A stretch of 64,000 bases of DNA from positions 15,636 to 79,635 of the forward strand of contig CACLRL010000001.1 in the NCBI GenBank assembly GCA_902609285.1, read 5' to 3'. The notes under the pieces are model-generated. The model saw only the letters and a program-made list of their open reading frames with translations. It was not told where the DNA came from and ran no database searches. A program made the position numbers and the translations under genes. Positions 1,150 through 63,420 of the stretch are shown in pieces. This stretch comes from an uncultured Candidatus Actinomarina sp. (GTDB lineage Bacteria > Actinomycetota > Acidimicrobiia > Actinomarinales > Actinomarinaceae). Numbering within the stretch: the first letter of the stretch is position 1; each line of letters opens with the position of its first letter.

Positions 1150-1222
1150 TGGAGATGATGGGACTTGAACCCACGACCCCCTGCTTGCAAAGCAGGTGCT
1201 CTTCCAGCTGAGCTACATCCCC
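1150..1222 (-). tRNA. tRNA-Ala (anticodon UGC)
   Basis: The reverse complement reads GGGGATGTAGCTCAGCTGGAAGAGCACCTGCTTTGCAAGCAGGGGGTCGTGGGTTCAAGTCCCATCATCTCCA. The cloverleaf has a G3:U70 identity pair and anticodon loop TTTGCAA. CCA is not encoded. Confidence 0.9.
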
Positions 1223-1311: not shown

Positions 1312-1389
1312 GGGCCTATAGCTCAGCCTGGTTAGAGCGCATCCCTGATAAGGATGAGGTCGTTAGTTCAAATCTAACTAGGCCCACCA
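1312..1389 (+). tRNA. tRNA-Ile (anticodon GAU), CCA encoded
   Basis: GGGCCTATAGCTCAGCCTGGTTAGAGCGCATCCCTGATAAGGATGAGGTCGTTAGTTCAAATCTAACTAGGCCCACCA. The anticodon loop is CTGATAA and the acceptor stem GGGCCTA/TAGGCCC is perfect. Confidence 0.9.
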
Positions 1390-6611: not shown

Positions 6612-6721
6612 CCTTAATTATCATTCTATTAAATAAAAGGTAAGTAATAATTTAAAATATCAAAGAAATAAATAGAAAGTTTTAGTTCATTTTATGAGAT
6701 TTGATATAATAATGAAAGCAT

Positions 6722-6815
6722 AAAGAGAAGGTTAAGACCTCGGCAACCTGGATGACTATCCAAGGTGCCTAAAGATGTGGCAGAAATGCAACTAATTAGT
6801 CAAAGCCCTTCTCCA
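6722..6815 (+). promoter_or_regulatory. SAM riboswitch of the SAM-I clan (SAM-IV or SAM-I/IV-like), 5' leader of metY-metX
   Basis: P1 GAGAAGG (6725..6731) pairs with CCTTCTC (6807..6813). The core is CGGCAACC-[CTGGA TGACTA TCCAA]-GGTGCC. An extended -10 TGATATAAT lies at 6702..6710, and the location upstream of Met biosynthesis genes fits. Confidence 0.55.
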
Positions 6816-32799: not shown

Positions 32800-32945
32800 G
32801 TAAGATACTCCATTCCTTCTCTCGAGGATTGTTGTCTAAAAAGTAAGAAAGGCGACCTGACTTATCCGAAGAATCACAGTTGCGGGACAGTGCTAGATTT
32901 TCACTAGCTTCGCTTTTTTACTTTATTTGTTTTAAAAAGAGTAGC
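32800..32945 (-). promoter_or_regulatory. cobalamin riboswitch (short, possibly AdoCbl-variant class)
   Basis: The minus strand reads ...GCTAGTGAAAATCTAGCACTGTCCCGCAACTGTGA...AAGTCAGGTCGCC..., matching the GUGAAAAUC / CCCGCAACUGU core and a B12-box-like AGUCAGG..GCC. Downstream CCTTTCTT can pair with the SD GAGAAAGG. Confidence 0.7.
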
Positions 32946-55830: not shown

Positions 55831-56265
55831 CTATTTACAGTTCACACACAGATCTGTACATTTACCAAACAATTCAAGCCTGTGATCCTCAATTACAAAA
55901 TTAAATTTTCTCTCAATTCTTTTTATTTCTTTTAATAGTTTATTTTCAAACTCTGTAGCCATCTCTACATCTATTATTTCACCACAATCACTACAAAATA
56001 AATGATGATGATGTGGGTGATCTTCCAATATAAGCTCAACCACAGTCTGATTGGCTGGTGTCGAAAATTCATGCAAAATATTTATATCTTTTAAATCGTT
56101 TAATACTCTATACAAAGTTGATTTAGCTACTTTATTTCTAAGTTGTGACAAAAGCTCATCAACAGTAATTGGACTTTTAATTTCAAGTAAAGCTTCTAGT
56201 ACAATAATTCTTGGATTCGTAATAGACACTTTGTGGTCAGCTAAAATTTTTCTTGAATTTACCAT
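55831..56265 (-). CDS. zur: Fur-family metalloregulator, probably Zur
   Basis: wHTH, HHHHLFCSDCG and C-terminal CTDLCVNC. It is divergent from znuACB. The start is taken at the internal Met (MVNSRKIL), because the ORF-track extension to 56355 runs through the operator/promoter. Confidence 0.75.
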   Translation of the reverse strand: MVNSRKILADHKVSITNPRIIVLEALLEIKSPITVDELLSQLRNKVAKSTLYRVLNDLKDINILHEFSTPANQTVVELILEDHPHHHHLFCSDCGEIIDVEMATEFENKLLKEIKRIERKFNFVIEDHRLELFGKCTDLCVNCK

Positions 56266-56323
56266 GATTAGACAATAATAGATCATTTTCAATAAAAAAA
56301 TATAAAATTCAATCAATATAGGC

Positions 56324-56357
56324 TTGACAAAAATAAAAATGAGACTTAATCTCATTT
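56324..56357 (+). promoter_or_regulatory. znuA promoter with overlapping Zur-box palindrome
   Basis: TTGACA (56324..56329), a 17-nt spacer, then TAATCT (56347..56352). A perfect 8-5-8 inverted repeat AAATGAGA-CTTAA-TCTCATTT (56337..56357) covers the -10. Confidence 0.55.
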
Positions 56358-56389: not shown

Positions 56390-57415
56390 ATGAAAAACAA
56401 ACCTATGTTTAAATATGCAGTATTAGCCCTTTCACTGGTTTTAGTGGCTTGTACAGGAAGTGGCACTGATGAGTCTAGTTGTCGAGAAAGAGAAGATGGA
56501 GATACTTTAAACGTACTAGCTACAACACCTATGATGGGTGAATTCGTTAGCCAGGTAGGTGGAGACAATATTAGTCTTACAGTTTTAATGCCCCCTGAAG
56601 CAAACCCGCATAATTACGATCCATCACCTCAAGACGCTACAACCATAGCTGAAGCAGATCTTATATTTTTCACTGGATTAAAGTATGAACCCGCACCACT
56701 TTTGAAGCTATTAGAAAGTTCAGCATGCAGTCCAGAAGTTTTAGCTGAAGTAGGTGAAAGTGTTTTCCCTGTAGAATTTAAAGAAGGTGGTCATGACGAT
56801 CATGATGAGCATGGTGAAGAAGGTCATGATGATGAAGAAGAAGGTCATGATGATGAAGAAGAAGGTCATGATGAGCATGAAGGACATGGTCATGGTGCAT
56901 ACGACCCTCACTTCTGGTTTGATCCAAACAGAGTTTCTTATGCCGCTGAATACATCGAAGGAAAGTTAATACAATATGATCCAGTAAATGAGGAAAGTTA
57001 TAAATCTTTGACAGATACTTTTACTACTGAACTAAAAGGATTAGTAAATGAAGTTATTGAGTTAATTGGTATGATTCCATCTGGAAACAGAAAACTCATT
57101 ACAACCCATGAATCTCTTGGTTATCTTGAAGCAAAATTTGGTTTAGAAGTTCTTGCAACTATTATTCCAAGTTTAGATTCAACAGATGAGGTTTCTCCTT
57201 CAGATTTAGTCGAAGTGATTGAAGTTATAGAAGAAGAAGGTGTAAAAGTCATGTTTGTTGAATCAGAAACCCCTTCGGTTTACGCAGAAACCCTTGCTCA
57301 AGAAACTGGTATAACGCTTGTAACAGGTTTGTATGTTGAGACATTAAAACCAAATCAATCTTATAGCGAGTTCTTAATAAGCAATGTAGAGTTGATTGTA
57401 AATAACTTGAAATAA
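56390..57415 (+). CDS. znuA: zinc ABC transporter substrate-binding lipoprotein (ZnuA/TroA cluster A-I) with His/Asp/Glu-rich loop
   Basis: Lipobox LVAC and the loop HDDHDEHGEEGHDDEEEGHDDEEEGHDEHEGHGHG. The loop is encoded by a short tandem repeat at about 56795..56885. Confidence 0.85.
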   Translation: MKNKPMFKYAVLALSLVLVACTGSGTDESSCREREDGDTLNVLATTPMMGEFVSQVGGDNISLTVLMPPEANPHNYDPSPQDATTIAEADLIFFTGLKYEPAPLLKLLESSACSPEVLAEVGESVFPVEFKEGGHDDHDEHGEEGHDDEEEGHDDEEEGHDEHEGHGHGAYDPHFWFDPNRVSYAAEYIEGKLIQYDPVNEESYKSLTDTFTTELKGLVNEVIELIGMIPSGNRKLITTHESLGYLEAKFGLEVLATIIPSLDSTDEVSPSDLVEVIEVIEEEGVKVMFVESETPSVYAETLAQETGITLVTGLYVETLKPNQSYSEFLISNVELIVNNLK

Positions 57416-59087: not shown

Positions 59088-59570
59088 TTGGAAGAAAAGA
59101 CATTTTCAATATGGGTGAAGTCTTCTTCTGACGATGTAGTAGATATTAAAAATCAAATTGATTCTTTTGCTAAGGAAGAGAACAAAGTTTCATTTGATCC
59201 CCACGTCACTCTTGTTACAAAAATTAATTCACAAGAAAAAGCAAATGATATTCTAGATCAGATTAAAAAAGAGAAAATTACAGTGACCTTTGATAGAGTC
59301 TGCGAAGGCGTAAGCTACTTTCAAAGACTTTACTTAACAGCATCTGATAATATTCCATTCAACAATTTAGTAATAAATCTTGAAGGTTGGCCAAGTTTAT
59401 GGGTTCCCCACATTTCTCTTTATTATGGGAATGAGTTACCTAAATCTTATAATGCTACAAAATTTGATAATCTCATCCCCACAACTATTACATTCGATAC
59501 TTTAGAGCTTTATAAAACTGGCCCCACAGTATCTGAGTGGAAGGAGATAACCACTCTGTCTTTAGGCTGA
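59088..59570 (+). CDS. 2H phosphoesterase superfamily protein (cyclic phosphodiesterase / LigT-like)
   Basis: Two HxT/S motifs, PHVTLVT and PHISLYY, at the expected spacing. Confidence 0.65.
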   Translation: MEEKTFSIWVKSSSDDVVDIKNQIDSFAKEENKVSFDPHVTLVTKINSQEKANDILDQIKKEKITVTFDRVCEGVSYFQRLYLTASDNIPFNNLVINLEGWPSLWVPHISLYYGNELPKSYNATKFDNLIPTTITFDTLELYKTGPTVSEWKEITTLSLG

Positions 59571-59599: not shown

Positions 59600-61837
59600 T
59601 TATACATTTGAAAAGCTTTCATTGGAAAAATCTATCTCTATACTTTTTGAGTTTGCTATAACTGTAAAATTGTTTTCACCAACACCAAGAATTGCTGGGA
59701 TATTATGTTCAGCACATCTAATGGCCATATGAGAGTTTGGTCCTCCATACTTTGTAATCAGCGATTTTATTTTGTAGTTGAAGATCCAATCCCAACCTGG
59801 GTCTGCAGCCGGAATAACGACTATTTTATTGTCAAGATTTTCAGGACGATTAGCTTCATTATCTATTAATAAAACGTCCCCATTTATTGTTCCCTGACCT
59901 ATATAATTTCCATTTTTACTCATTTCTTCGTAAAAATAAAAGTCTTCGTCAGAAGTAATTAAATCAGGCATTAATACATTCTTTAATCTCATATCACTAG
60001 TATTTTCTTCATTAAATTCAATATCAAGTAAATCAAACAATTCTCTATCGCTGGTATTTTTTTCACTTATTTCATTTAAAATTCCATCTATACCTTTGCT
60101 GTAATAAAATTTAGAGTTTTCTCTTGTTGAAATTCCGTCCTGAAACATATCTATCCAAGCAGACGCTTTTAAGGGAATATTGTTTACAATGAAATATTTT
60201 TCAATATTCGTAAATATATCCTTTGGTAAAATATTGTCTTCCAAAGGTTGCTCACTATTGTCAATCAGTGATTCAGTAAAACTTAAATTGTTTTTTAAGT
60301 TTGATGATGAAAGATTATAATTTCCAGCTCTAATATGACCATAAACATCAAAAAAGGCGTTCAATGTTTTTTTTCCAATTTTGACTTCATAAGCATCAGC
60401 TTTCATTTTTGTACTTATGGAATTAACTGATAAAAGCAACAATTTTTTTTGATCTTCTGTAATAACTCCCTTTTCAAGAAAGCTATTAAGTTGAGCAAAG
60501 TATACAAATCCTAATCTCGAATGATGGGTAAAAGGAAGGGCCATAGTATCTCTTATTAGTGTGATATTTTCTTTTTTTAAATACTCAAAACTCTTATCCA
60601 ATTTTGAGAAAGTTCTTAAAATAATTTTTCTATTCTTTTCTAAAGTAGTTTTATTTTGTGAATCAATTTGAATTAAGTCATTGTGCCATTGAATAATTTC
60701 ATTTGGATCAATTATATTTTTATACTCTTGAGAGAATTCTTCAACTGTATCAAAAATATAAGACGACCTAGAAATATCAAACTCTATAGAGTCATGCAAG
60801 TGCGGGTTTTCTTTGAGTTTGTTTAGTTGATAATTAATTATTTCTTCACAGCTTTCTTTTTGTAAATTTCTTGTCAGAAAACTATTAAGACTGTGATTTA
60901 CATTTATATATGCGACGTTATTAAAAAGTTCCATCAATTTTCCACCAGAATATTCGCGATAACCAAACTCTCCACGTTGTATATTCCATGTTGTATCAGT
61001 GAACATGAACTTATATAAACCAAAAGCAATATTGTCAGGTTTTTTACCTATCATTTCAGCTGGATTCATATCTGACATATTGCTGTAAATTTGATTTGAG
61101 CCAAATCGATCTGAAGTTGTTTCGCTTAGCTTGTTATATTTTTCTAAATTTTTATCGATAACTTTTTTTTCATCGTGTATTGATTTTTTATTAAGTTTTT
61201 TGCCCATCAGTGGCCTTACTTGGAGCAGTTGTGGGGAGTTGTTTTTATCAAGAACCATTTCAATATCTAGTTGTTTATTTTTAAATAAGTCTTCAAGTTG
61301 GTTTATTACTTTCAGATAAACGTTATTTTTTTGATATTTATTTGGAAGATAGTCAACAGATCTATGCATAAAGAAATTTTCTATTTCGCTATATTTACCT
61401 GAAGTAACAGCTTCAGTTTCAGAACCAAAATACGTAGAAAATGATCTATATGCTGAGTCAGTTCCTACTTTGTATGAAGTTAATACTGAGACACTTTTAG
61501 CATTATCAACATAATTTTGAAATATTACTGACTGATTATTTTTTTTATCGTAGCTATCAAACACCATATTAAATGATTTCTTAATAGCTACGATATCTTC
61601 TTTATCTACTGGACCCACAGATAGATATTTTCCAGCACTTGAAAAATTCTCTTCATCTTCGTCTGAACTGTCACTTCTTATCATTATTTTTTCAGAAAAA
61701 TAAACAAGAATTTTCTCAATACCTTCCAGGTCTTCTGGATAAATCTTTTTAAAGTATGGAATTTCAATATCTGTATGTTTAGCTACAAATTCTAAATTTT
61801 TAGATTTGTTCCCAAAGGTCAATTGATTTACAGTCAT
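59600..61837 (-). CDS. PEP-utilising-enzyme-family kinase: N-terminal PPDK_N ATP-grasp + unknown central domain + C-terminal swivel phosphohistidine domain (no PEP/pyruvate TIM barrel)
   Basis: FGNKSKNLEF, IMIRSDSSDEDEENFSSAGKYLSV and IFQNYV are PpsA/PPDK N-domain blocks. GGPNSHMAIRCAEHNIPAILGV lies about 55 aa from the C-terminus. The start is taken at ATG 61837, 4 nt after the trpB2 stop. The alternative start at 61867 would overlap trpB2 by 26 nt. Confidence 0.75.
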   Translation of the reverse strand: MTVNQLTFGNKSKNLEFVAKHTDIEIPYFKKIYPEDLEGIEKILVYFSEKIMIRSDSSDEDEENFSSAGKYLSVGPVDKEDIVAIKKSFNMVFDSYDKKNNQSVIFQNYVDNAKSVSVLTSYKVGTDSAYRSFSTYFGSETEAVTSGKYSEIENFFMHRSVDYLPNKYQKNNVYLKVINQLEDLFKNKQLDIEMVLDKNNSPQLLQVRPLMGKKLNKKSIHDEKKVIDKNLEKYNKLSETTSDRFGSNQIYSNMSDMNPAEMIGKKPDNIAFGLYKFMFTDTTWNIQRGEFGYREYSGGKLMELFNNVAYINVNHSLNSFLTRNLQKESCEEIINYQLNKLKENPHLHDSIEFDISRSSYIFDTVEEFSQEYKNIIDPNEIIQWHNDLIQIDSQNKTTLEKNRKIILRTFSKLDKSFEYLKKENITLIRDTMALPFTHHSRLGFVYFAQLNSFLEKGVITEDQKKLLLLSVNSISTKMKADAYEVKIGKKTLNAFFDVYGHIRAGNYNLSSSNLKNNLSFTESLIDNSEQPLEDNILPKDIFTNIEKYFIVNNIPLKASAWIDMFQDGISTRENSKFYYSKGIDGILNEISEKNTSDRELFDLLDIEFNEENTSDMRLKNVLMPDLITSDEDFYFYEEMSKNGNYIGQGTINGDVLLIDNEANRPENLDNKIVVIPAADPGWDWIFNYKIKSLITKYGGPNSHMAIRCAEHNIPAILGVGENNFTVIANSKSIEIDFSNESFSNV

Positions 61838-61841
61838 AAAG

Positions 61842-63197
61842 CTATTTCTTAACTGACTCCAGAGCAACTTTCACTTTTTCAGCTGGGAATTCATAGTCAA
61901 TCATTTCACCACTTAAAAAGTTTTCGTATGCTTTCATATCAAAATGTCCATGGCCACACATAGCAGTTAATACAGCAATTTTTTTTGAATTTTGATCAGC
62001 ATCTTTGACTGCTCTTATCGCAGATGCAATTGCATGAGTTGCTTCCGGGGCTGGAACAATACCTTCAGTTTTAGCAAAAAGCTGACCAGCCTCAAAACAT
62101 TCTTTTTGACCAATTGCTTCTGCTTCTATTAGATTTTCTTCATACATTGCACTTACTAATGGGGCCATACCGTGATATCGCAATCCCCCAGCATGTATTG
62201 GGTCAGGTACAAAACTAGATCCAAGAGTATGCATTTTTACAACAGGTGCCATACCAACCGAATCACCAAAGTCGTATGTATACACACCTTTGGTTAACGA
62301 AGGACAAGCCTCTGGCTCCACCGCACGTATTATTGTCTTTTGATCTGTTTGCATATTATTTCTTAAGAATGGAGAAAACAAACCTGTAAAGTTTGATCCA
62401 CCTCCCGTACAACCAACAATAACATTGGGGTAATCTTCGGCCATTTCCATTTGTTTCAAAGCCTCAAGACCAATTATAGATTGATGCATGAGCACATGAT
62501 TTAAAACACTTCCAAGTGCATACCTCGTACCTTCTTCTTTTCTAGCAACTTCAATTGCTTCTGAAATAGCTATGCCTAAACTTCCAGGCGTATTCGGATC
62601 TTCTGATAAAAACTTTTTACCAATATCTGTTTTATCAGATGGACTTGGATAAACTTTTGCTCCGTAGATCTCCATCATTGTTTTCCTGTATGGTTTTGAT
62701 TCGTAAGATGCTGCTACTTGAAATACCTCAAGTTCAATACCAAACGCTTGGCAAGCAAATGATAAAGCAGATCCCCATTGGCCAGCTCCAGTCTCTGTAA
62801 CCATTTTTTTAATTCCCTCCTCGGCATTAAAAAAAGCTTGTGGAATGGCTGTGTTAGGTTTATGAGATCCTGATGGTGACCCACCCTCATACTTGTAATA
62901 TATTCTCGAGTTTGTACCTATAGCTTTTTCAAGTCTAAGAGCTCTATACATCGGCGAAGGCCTATAAAGTTTATAGAGTTCTAAAACAGGTTCTGGAATA
63001 TCAATATAATTTTGATCAGAAACCTCTTGAAGTATTAATCCCATTGGAAATAATGGGGCTAAATCCTCTGGACCAATTGGCTCCATTGTTTGAGGATTTA
63101 ACTGTGGTGGCAATGGATTTGGTAAATCCGGTACAATGTTATACCACTGCTTTGGTAAATCATCTTCATTTAGTAGATATTTATACTGTTCTTTCAT
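61842..63197 (-). CDS. trpB2: TrpB2-type (TrpB-like) tryptophan synthase beta-family PLP enzyme
   Basis: 451 aa with the N-terminal extension typical of TrpB2 (LPKQWYNIVPDLP). It has the PLP-lysine block GGSPSGSHKPNTA and the SD AAGGAG. Confidence 0.85.
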   Translation of the reverse strand: MKEQYKYLLNEDDLPKQWYNIVPDLPNPLPPQLNPQTMEPIGPEDLAPLFPMGLILQEVSDQNYIDIPEPVLELYKLYRPSPMYRALRLEKAIGTNSRIYYKYEGGSPSGSHKPNTAIPQAFFNAEEGIKKMVTETGAGQWGSALSFACQAFGIELEVFQVAASYESKPYRKTMMEIYGAKVYPSPSDKTDIGKKFLSEDPNTPGSLGIAISEAIEVARKEEGTRYALGSVLNHVLMHQSIIGLEALKQMEMAEDYPNVIVGCTGGGSNFTGLFSPFLRNNMQTDQKTIIRAVEPEACPSLTKGVYTYDFGDSVGMAPVVKMHTLGSSFVPDPIHAGGLRYHGMAPLVSAMYEENLIEAEAIGQKECFEAGQLFAKTEGIVPAPEATHAIASAIRAVKDADQNSKKIAVLTAMCGHGHFDMKAYENFLSGEMIDYEFPAEKVKVALESVKK

Positions 63198-63250
63198 TTT
63201 TGCTCCTTCTTTTGGGTTGAGCCCGGAGATTTAATTTCAGTGACAGTAAT

Positions 63251-63275
63251 AAAAAAACCGGGCTGTGCCCGGTTT
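63251..63275 (-). terminator. intrinsic terminator inside the trpB2 5' leader (attenuator)
   Basis: The minus strand reads AAACCGGG-CACAG-CCCGGTTT followed by further Ts (7 Ts in a row in total). It lies 53 nt upstream of the trpB2 ATG, and no upstream same-strand gene needs a terminator here. Confidence 0.7.
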
Positions 63276-63300: not shown

Positions 63301-63342
63301 CTATGTAGTTGTCCACCAATTCCAGCTAGTTATATTTTTCAT
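63301..63342 (-). CDS. Trp-rich leader peptide MKNITSWNWWTTT
   Basis: ATG AAA AAT ATA ACT AGC TGG AAT TGG TGG ACA ACT ACA TAG was read directly on the minus strand. It has 3 Trp codons in 13 and sits about 25 nt upstream of the terminator hairpin. Confidence 0.65.
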   Translation of the reverse strand: MKNITSWNWWTTT

Positions 63343-63420
63343 ATTTAATAATGTACCAAATAATCCAGATGTTGCAAAATTCATTTAAGTAAATTCTTTA
63401 TTTATTCTATTCTTTATTAA

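Follow-up and report, generated by a model that had tools for sequence, protein, structure and literature searches.

Why would a bacterium described as unable to make tryptophan (Trp) keep a Trp-sensing leader in front of a TrpB-like enzyme and a kinase? Candidatus Actinomarina ranks among the ocean's smallest and most abundant free-living bacteria, and Actinomarinales are reported to be auxotrophic for Trp, Arg and His (PMC7771536; bioRxiv 10.64898/2026.04.03.716425). The question is raised by a 64,000-nucleotide (nt) stretch of an uncultured Candidatus Actinomarina sp. (GenBank assembly GCA_902609285.1, contig CACLRL010000001.1, positions 15,636 to 79,635), here called the window, in which the gene trpB2 is followed after 4 nt by a gene for a three-domain phosphotransferase, here called the kinase. 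An original prediction made from the letters of this DNA suggested that the two genes may form a salvage module in which the kinase phosphorylates a co-substrate of TrpB2. We favour a different reading, with a probability of roughly 0.6: the locus would be a transcription unit for Trp limitation that carries two separable genes as its cargo, and the kinase a neo-functionalised descendant of the L-glutamine kinases. L and P numbers below are our own labels for loci and proteins.

A Trp-codon leader in front of a variable slot

A Trp attenuator is present at this locus as a sequence feature: clustered Trp codons followed by a terminator, conserved in relatives. The leader open reading frame (ORF), which can also be read in a longer form of 27 amino acids (aa) starting at 63384, has Trp at three of four consecutive codons, and the terminator downstream is a 9-bp GC-rich hairpin (63275..63255) followed by a run of T. 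The leader RNA folds with -39.1 kcal/mol (z = -2.5), with one hairpin spanning the Trp codons and the terminator hairpin lying downstream of it. The leaders of 64 related loci fall into 26 distinct sequences, in which W-N-W-W is invariant and the neighbouring codons are variable; the terminator is kept across this set, and its stem is conserved in 12 representative leaders. Scanning the leader against Rfam, at gathering and at permissive thresholds, returned no family and no known Trp element. By analogy to classical trp attenuation, scarcity of charged tRNA-Trp would stall the ribosome on the Trp codons of the leader and allow transcription to read through the terminator. An antiterminator pairing of GTGCCC with GGGCAC, or of CTGCCC with GGGCAG, is possible by eye in several leader types.

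The first gene behind the leader is a clear TrpB2, a stand-alone TrpB-like pyridoxal phosphate enzyme, as judged from its scores against NF009057 (698 bits, cutoff 366) and TIGR01415 (609 bits, cutoff 519), from its match to Pfam PALP and from its best solved relatives, the crystallised TrpB2-type chains 6hul_B, 4qys_B and 6hte_B. Enzymes of this type are reported to bind indole tightly and to prefer O-phosphoserine (Busch 2014; Hettwer & Sterner 2002, both as cited in PMC11917138), a preference that agrees with what the original prediction said of them. TrpB2 would then make Trp from scavenged indole and serine or O-phosphoserine, and in a Trp auxotroph a leader-gated TrpB2 is most simply read as a device for indole salvage. 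The protein is unusually conserved, being 93% identical between the window and L005, where the flanking proteins are 52-83% identical. The literature reports Trp biosynthesis as absent (PMC7771536 and the preprint above), and this, together with the serine genes discussed below, is the genomic background that the original prediction wanted checked. A conserved, leader-controlled TrpB2 in many lineages (window, L085-L149, L168) qualifies this published picture of an absent pathway: many lineages can apparently still finish the last step from scavenged indole.

What stands behind the leader differs from lineage to lineage. A metagenome scan with TrpB2 yielded 80 loci, 67 of them of Actinomarina type (TrpB2 at least 80% identical) and 13 more distant (59-75%). 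At 16 of the 67 trpB2 is followed by the kinase. The commonest state, trpB2 alone, is found at 45, one of them on a 1.07-Mb contig, and in most of these the 3' end of trpB2 abuts a convergent cyclic-phosphodiesterase (CPDase)-like gene. Two loci (L106 and L117) have trpB2 with an internally deleted kinase, four are ambiguous in slot content, and none of the 13 distant loci has a kinase beside trpB2. A further state emerged from the protein database, where the close homologues of the kinase mostly belong to a 744-aa class (85-88% identity): at all six loci of this class that were checked trpB2 is missing, and the same leader, terminator and 5' untranslated region immediately precede the kinase. 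The flanks of the slot are a MacB-type ABC ATPase gene and CPDase/Znu genes, and wherever both are on the contig (L001 and L165-L167) the solitary kinase lies between these same genes.

There is, then, one chromosomal slot in three states, all behind a WNWW leader: trpB2 with kinase (window, L005, L006, L008, L009, L085 and others), trpB2 alone, and kinase alone (L001, L002, L004, L165, L166, L167). Since one site, behind one and the same leader, holds both genes in some sister lineages and only trpB2 or only the kinase in others, the kinase is separable from trpB2, and it is most readily understood as an independent second answer to Trp limitation and not as an obligate partner of TrpB2. The original prediction was right about the tight coupling, as the two genes are 3-7 nt apart in every locus that carries both, and its claim that both are under Trp control comes out stronger than it was made, because in one clade this leader is followed directly by the kinase, with no trpB2 between them. 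An obligate pairing of the two genes is not supported, as the linkage is confined to part of one genus and 45 of the 67 trpB2 loci lack the kinase.

The linkage was not found in other lineages; the original prediction would have counted a lack of conserved linkage in other genomes against itself. A scan of one genome per species, queried with a 35-sequence alignment of the kinase, gave 80 loci, six from Candidatus Actinomarina and 74 from many phyla; neighbourhoods were counted for 73 non-Actinomarina relatives by crude gene calling and clustering of neighbours. None of these 73 has trpB2 within 10 kb of the kinase, and a tblastn search with TrpB2 against 84 loci gave five matches, all in Actinomarina.

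Several oddities of the slot deserve mention in their own right. The kinase of L106 (3795-5751) lacks about aa 627-698 and the adjoining trpB2 could be matched only to aa 438, while that of L117 (1424-3483) lacks about aa 229-283 next to a full-length trpB2; both could be genes in decay or assembly artefacts. In one lineage with the trpB2-only slot, an inserted tRNA_edit gene, encoding a YbaK-like aminoacyl-tRNA deacylase, separates the ABC ATPase gene from the Trp leader (L168 4325-4906, on the 1.07-Mb contig, and also L169 and L170).

Selection and descent of the slot

The solitary kinase genes are intact and under purifying selection: in 14 of 15 pairs the ratio of nonsynonymous to synonymous substitution rates (dN/dS) is 0.13-0.20 at synonymous divergences (dS) of 0.07-0.20, the fifteenth pair being nearly identical. 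In these lineages the leader has diverged about ten-fold less than the synonymous sites of the kinase, and the full 223-nt leader region differs by 0-1.3% among the four kinase-only loci that contain it. We take this low divergence as constraint, which implies that selection keeps the leader and terminator in front of the kinase alone.

Since kinase-bearing and kinase-less loci are interleaved by TrpB2 identity class, the kinase appears to have been lost repeatedly. Horizontal transfer of the kinase was considered for L005 and L006, whose kinases are 90.6% and TrpB2s 87.8% identical, and was rejected, as their flanking genes are similarly close (67-91%); with flanks as close as the two genes themselves, the pattern is explained by vertical descent together with repeated loss. 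Faster evolution of the kinase was likewise rejected: the kinases of the window and L005 are 71.5% identical, which is the background level of the flanks (52-83%).

The kinase and its family

The window kinase is a divergent branch of the L-glutamine kinases (Cj1418 / NF004508), a placement that comes from sequence comparison. On the kinase itself, Pfam recognises only the PEP-utilizers mobile domain PF00391 (aa 670-737), with no match to a phosphoenolpyruvate (PEP)/pyruvate TIM barrel. The AlphaFold model (pLDDT 87.9, pTM 0.85) finds its best full-length Foldseek match in the rifampin phosphotransferase (RPH) of Listeria (5hv1, 5fbs; E 1e-20 to 1e-15, TM about 0.4), and the N-terminal third matches the ATP-binding domain of RPH as well as the ATP-grasp enzymes Ddl, RimK and PurK. 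The original prediction had proposed an RPH-like domain order without a PEP/pyruvate domain and had asked for a structure prediction; Pfam and the fold search uphold the former, and the model supplies the latter. It had also described about 400 aa between the two ends as unassignable. Pfam alone does leave this middle part unassigned, but the family model NF004508 (PRK05849, "hypothetical protein") covers aa 5-741 of the kinase, and because the match runs over this whole length the middle part is homologous to the conserved central domain of the NF004508 family.

An exhaustive profile search of a representative set of 1.8 billion proteins returned 2364 relatives, 1061 of them below 1e-30. Among the 73 non-Actinomarina relatives, a GATase/Peptidase_C26 gene follows the kinase in 56, usually immediately downstream, and a nucleotidyltransferase gene is present in 60, usually as the second gene downstream; an APS-kinase-like gene occurs in 33 and a methyltransferase in 18. 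These neighbours correspond to cj1415-cj1418, the set with which Campylobacter jejuni makes the O-methyl phosphoramidate modification of its capsule (PMC3907429), so that the family's usual setting is a capsule-modification cluster of this kind. We equate NF004508 with the family of the L-glutamine kinase Cj1418, an equation that rests on this gene-neighbourhood signature and on the literature, not on the sequence of Cj1418.

Two better-known enzymes were considered as identities for the kinase and rejected. It is not a bona fide RPH, as NF041857 gives 20.8 bits against a cutoff of 999 and touches the C-terminal domain only, nor a PEP synthase, as the TIM barrel is absent and the PEP synthase models match the swivel region only. 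The original prediction would have counted a grouping with antibiotic phosphotransferases or with PpsA of known function against itself; the kinase does group with an enzyme of known function, but this is the L-glutamine kinase and neither of those two, so that the outcome goes against the prediction in spirit and not to the letter.

The survey also turned up facts about the family at large. Members in clusters resembling cj1415-cj1418 (within L011-L084) come from SAR11, Legionella, Lachnospiraceae, Corallococcus, Bdellovibrionales and a Woesearchaeota metagenome-assembled genome, with examples of phosphoramidate-type clusters at L037 8713-13697, L064 9116-13699 and L025 10004-13619; from these sequences, the phosphoramidate pathway looks far wider spread than Campylobacter. 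About half of the family members are some 1000 aa long, with an N-terminal extension of 200-280 aa that has no Pfam match (P0122-P0124, P0127-P0130 and L064 9116-9870), and several of these have a LAGG/GAGQ motif of nucleotidyltransferase type at their start, suggesting that they are bifunctional fusions.

Changes in the presumed acceptor domain

How far has the Actinomarina kinase moved away from its family? Its NF004508 score of 483.1 bits lies below the cutoff of 501, as do those of L001 (492.3) and L007 (488.9), whereas cluster-linked kinases score 811-957. An alignment of 50 cluster-linked kinases has 119 columns with a conservation of 90% or more; the Actinomarina kinases keep 89 of these conserved columns and have changed 28. 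Those kept include H703, D256, N258, E261, R288, D349, E352, R441, R503, Y507, R572, E573 and K576, and the catalytic H703 (codon 59729-59731) is invariant in both sets of relatives examined (35 of 35 and 149 of 149). We infer that the phosphotransfer machine is intact: the ATP-grasp domain would move a phosphate from ATP onto His703 of the swivelling C-terminal domain, which would then hand it to a small acceptor held in the central domain.

The central domain itself has been altered at four near-invariant positions. The family has W at position 257 in 143 of 149 representatives, D at position 312 in 138, R at position 314 in 120 and K at position 350 in 144, and Actinomarina has M, N, N and S, respectively. 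This M/N/N/S signature is present in all eight aligned Actinomarina kinases and in P0121, which is 71% identical, and is almost absent elsewhere; P0122, the closest sequence outside this group (42% identity), retains W, D, R and K and has GATase, nucleotidyltransferase and glycosyltransferase genes downstream. A tblastn search of the window and of seven Actinomarina loci found no homologues of Cj1415, Cj1416 or Cj1417. Because four near-invariant residues of the central domain are replaced and the three partner enzymes that act on phospho-glutamine are missing from every locus examined, the kinase has probably switched to an acceptor other than L-glutamine. Among the Actinomarina kinases, the central domain has diverged less than the ATP-grasp domain. 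The glutamine-kinase family would thus have yielded an offshoot that combines changed residues in its acceptor domain with a switch for amino-acid starvation, which makes it a target in the search for a new phosphotransfer reaction.

Which reaction does the kinase serve?

The sharpest form of a new acceptor tied to Trp limitation is the one contained in the original prediction, in which this glutamine-kinase descendant phosphorylates a co-substrate of TrpB2, likeliest free L-serine to O-phospho-L-serine, and the pair forms a dedicated indole-to-tryptophan salvage module. We consider this unlikely, though it has a good deal in its favour. TrpB2 enzymes are reported to depend on O-phosphoserine (Busch 2014, as cited in PMC11917138), and 84 complete Actinomarina genomes are reported to have serA and serB and to lack serC, the normal source of phosphoserine (bioRxiv 10.64898/2026.04.03.716425), an absence that would fit a need for another source. 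The genes are translationally coupled in two deep kinase clades, and the Trp leader precedes both of them. Coupling, Trp control and the missing serC therefore still speak for a co-substrate kinase, but the separable states of the slot and the changed residues have weakened the idea: at 45 of the 67 Actinomarina loci trpB2 stands in the slot without a kinase and at two the kinase is internally deleted, solitary kinases are abundant, evolve under purifying selection and have kept their leader, and trpB2 is missing near all 73 relatives from other lineages. The changed charged residues D312, R314 and K350 would moreover be natural ligands of an amino-acid backbone; their loss would not favour another amino-acid substrate and is no obvious requirement of a serine kinase. 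The natural three-state polymorphism offers a ready comparison for asking whether TrpB2 depends on a phosphoserine supply of its own. Were the idea true, free L-serine kinases would gain a third type, structurally unrelated to the others, in an organism without SerC, and the glutamine-kinase superfamily its first member under a Trp attenuator.

It is improbable that the kinase has remained an L-glutamine kinase, or some other kinase that forms phosphoramidates, as a remnant of a surface-modification pathway, and came to lie beside trpB2 by an accident of a recombination-prone slot, with no functional link to Trp. Such a view could draw on the full-length homology to the Cj1418 family with its intact catalytic core, on the varying content of the slot between lineages and on the one kinase clade that is not Trp-regulated, but it has to reckon with a score under the family cutoff, with the replacement of four near-invariant residues in every Actinomarina copy aligned and with the lack of the Cj1415-1417 partners in the window and related loci. 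Against it, too, stand the leaders of the kinase-only lineages, which diverge about ten times less than the synonymous sites of the kinase.

Very improbable is an RPH-like phosphotransferase that detoxifies a Trp antimetabolite or an inhibitor of tryptophanyl-tRNA synthetase, the leader sensing the drop in charged tRNA-Trp much as the antibiotic-resistant trpRS gene of Streptomyces coelicolor is induced through such a Trp leader: the full-length fold match to RPH, the persistence of the kinase alone under the Trp leader at loci without trpB2 and a patchy accessory distribution typical of resistance genes would suit it, but the sequence affinity is to glutamine kinases and not to RPH (20.8 bits against 999 for NF041857) and the central domain is conserved, not diversifying, within Actinomarina.

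Several points weigh against our own reading, in which the slot is a Trp-limitation unit and the kinase one of two separable cargoes with a new acceptor. A third kinase clade (L007/L010; 68% identity, in a 90%-identity cluster of 1345 members) has the same residue signature at a separate locus with no leader, which implies that the function is not strictly Trp-specific. The conservation of the leader in kinase-only lineages could partly be promoter and ribosome-binding-site constraint. RNAalifold predicts no antiterminator in the leaders, the pairing being only partly evident, with a single covarying pair counted. Finally, the slot counts cover linked genes, so that an unlinked kinase or trpB2 elsewhere in a genome is possible; on the contigs of more than 1 Mb that bear trpB2, no kinase was found among the matches listed from the cluster, the contig look-ups and the homologue search.

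The surroundings of the leaderless clade are of some interest in themselves. In L007/L010 (9516-12229) the kinase gene lies 2 nt from, and is translationally coupled to, a gene for a 145-aa DoxX/DUF417-like membrane protein, and it is convergent to metX/metY-like genes.

Features of the locus

The coordinates of the unit in the window are collected in the table. Gene order, stop and start positions, the 4-nt gap and the 26-nt alternative overlap given in the original prediction were all verified on the minus strand, and the blocks GNKSKNLEF, IRSDSSDEDEENFSSAGKY, FQNYV and GGPNSHMAIRCAEHNIPAILGV that it quoted were each found in the kinase translation. The overlap belongs to an alternative TTG start at 61867, which would give a kinase of 755 aa; because the N-termini of homologues, MNNRLSYGNKAKN and MDDRINYGNKAKN, begin where the ATG of the window sits, the ATG is the likely start.

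Features of the Trp-controlled unit in the window (positions are those of the window)
Feature	Coordinates	Strand	Details
Leader peptide ORF, MKNITSWNWWTTT followed by a stop	63301..63342	minus	13 codons; Trp codons at 63313-63324
Intrinsic terminator, AAACCGGGC-ACA-GCCCGGTTT + T-run	63248..63275	minus	terminator scan
trpB2	61842..63197	minus	451 aa; stop TAG 61842-61844
Kinase gene (three-domain phosphotransferase)	59600..61837	minus	745 aa; ATG 61837-61835
ATP-grasp nucleotide-binding domain	61118..61837	minus	about aa 1-240; relatives match PPDK_N; Foldseek
Central mostly helical domain, presumed acceptor-binding	59918..61117	minus	about aa 241-640; DMNPAE motif
Swivel phosphohistidine domain	59603..59917	minus	about aa 641-745; PF00391 at aa 670-737

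Convergent to the kinase lies a gene for a 2H-phosphoesterase or CPDase-like protein of 160 aa (59088-59570, plus strand), which forms the constant right-hand edge of the variable slot in most lineages examined. Further along, a gene for a ZnuA-type metal-binding lipoprotein (56390-57415, plus strand) with a long insert rich in His, Asp and Glu, GHDDHDEHGEEGHDDEEEGHDDEEEGHDEHEGHGHG, has as neighbours the genes of an ABC ATPase and an ABC-3 permease, as well as the divergently oriented gene of a Fur-family regulator (55831-56355, minus strand). Elsewhere the window contains a SAM-I/IV riboswitch (6713-6805, plus strand, 75.5 bits), an AdoCbl riboswitch (32802-32938, minus strand, 69 bits) and two tRNA genes (1150-1222, minus strand, and 1312-1386, plus strand).

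Comparison with known systems

Like attenuators of the trpL type, the Actinomarina leader combines a short ORF with clustered Trp codons, a GC-rich hairpin with a T-run and a trp-related gene downstream. It differs from them in having no Rfam match, in a mutually exclusive antiterminator that is putative only, and in controlling, in some lineages, nothing but a non-biosynthetic kinase. The TrpB2 it precedes resembles known TrpB2 enzymes by family score and solved relatives, the preference for O-phosphoserine being known for those others only; unlike them, it is the sole reported enzyme of the Trp pathway in a Trp auxotroph and stands under a Trp leader.

The kinase shares the ATP-grasp and swivel phosphohistidine domains with PEP synthase and PPDK, but its phosphohistidine domain is C-terminal, the domain order is different and the PEP/pyruvate TIM barrel is lacking. 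RPH of Listeria (RPH-Lm; 5hv1, 5fbs) is the best full-length fold match, with the same domain order and likewise no TIM barrel; identity is 14-16%, however, sequence similarity is limited to the C-terminal swivel region, and at a TM of about 0.4 the central domains are only loosely similar.

With the L-glutamine kinase Cj1418 (EC 2.7.3.13; NF004508) the kinase shares homology over aa 5-741, the order of ATP-grasp, central and swivel His domains, the 89 retained columns of the 119 and a catalytic His that in the window lies within a GGxNSHMAIRCAE motif. What sets the Actinomarina enzyme apart from this family is a score below the cutoff, the replacement of W257, D312, R314 and K350, the lack of the Cj1417 amidohydrolase, Cj1416 cytidylyltransferase and Cj1415 kinase nearby, and a setting of Trp attenuator and/or trpB2 in place of a capsule-modification cluster.

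The known free-serine kinases, archaeal SerK and staphylococcal SbnI, have a ParB/Srx-like fold. Should the unlikely idea of a serine kinase prove right, the Actinomarina enzyme would share with them the product O-phosphoserine, their fold being an unrelated one.

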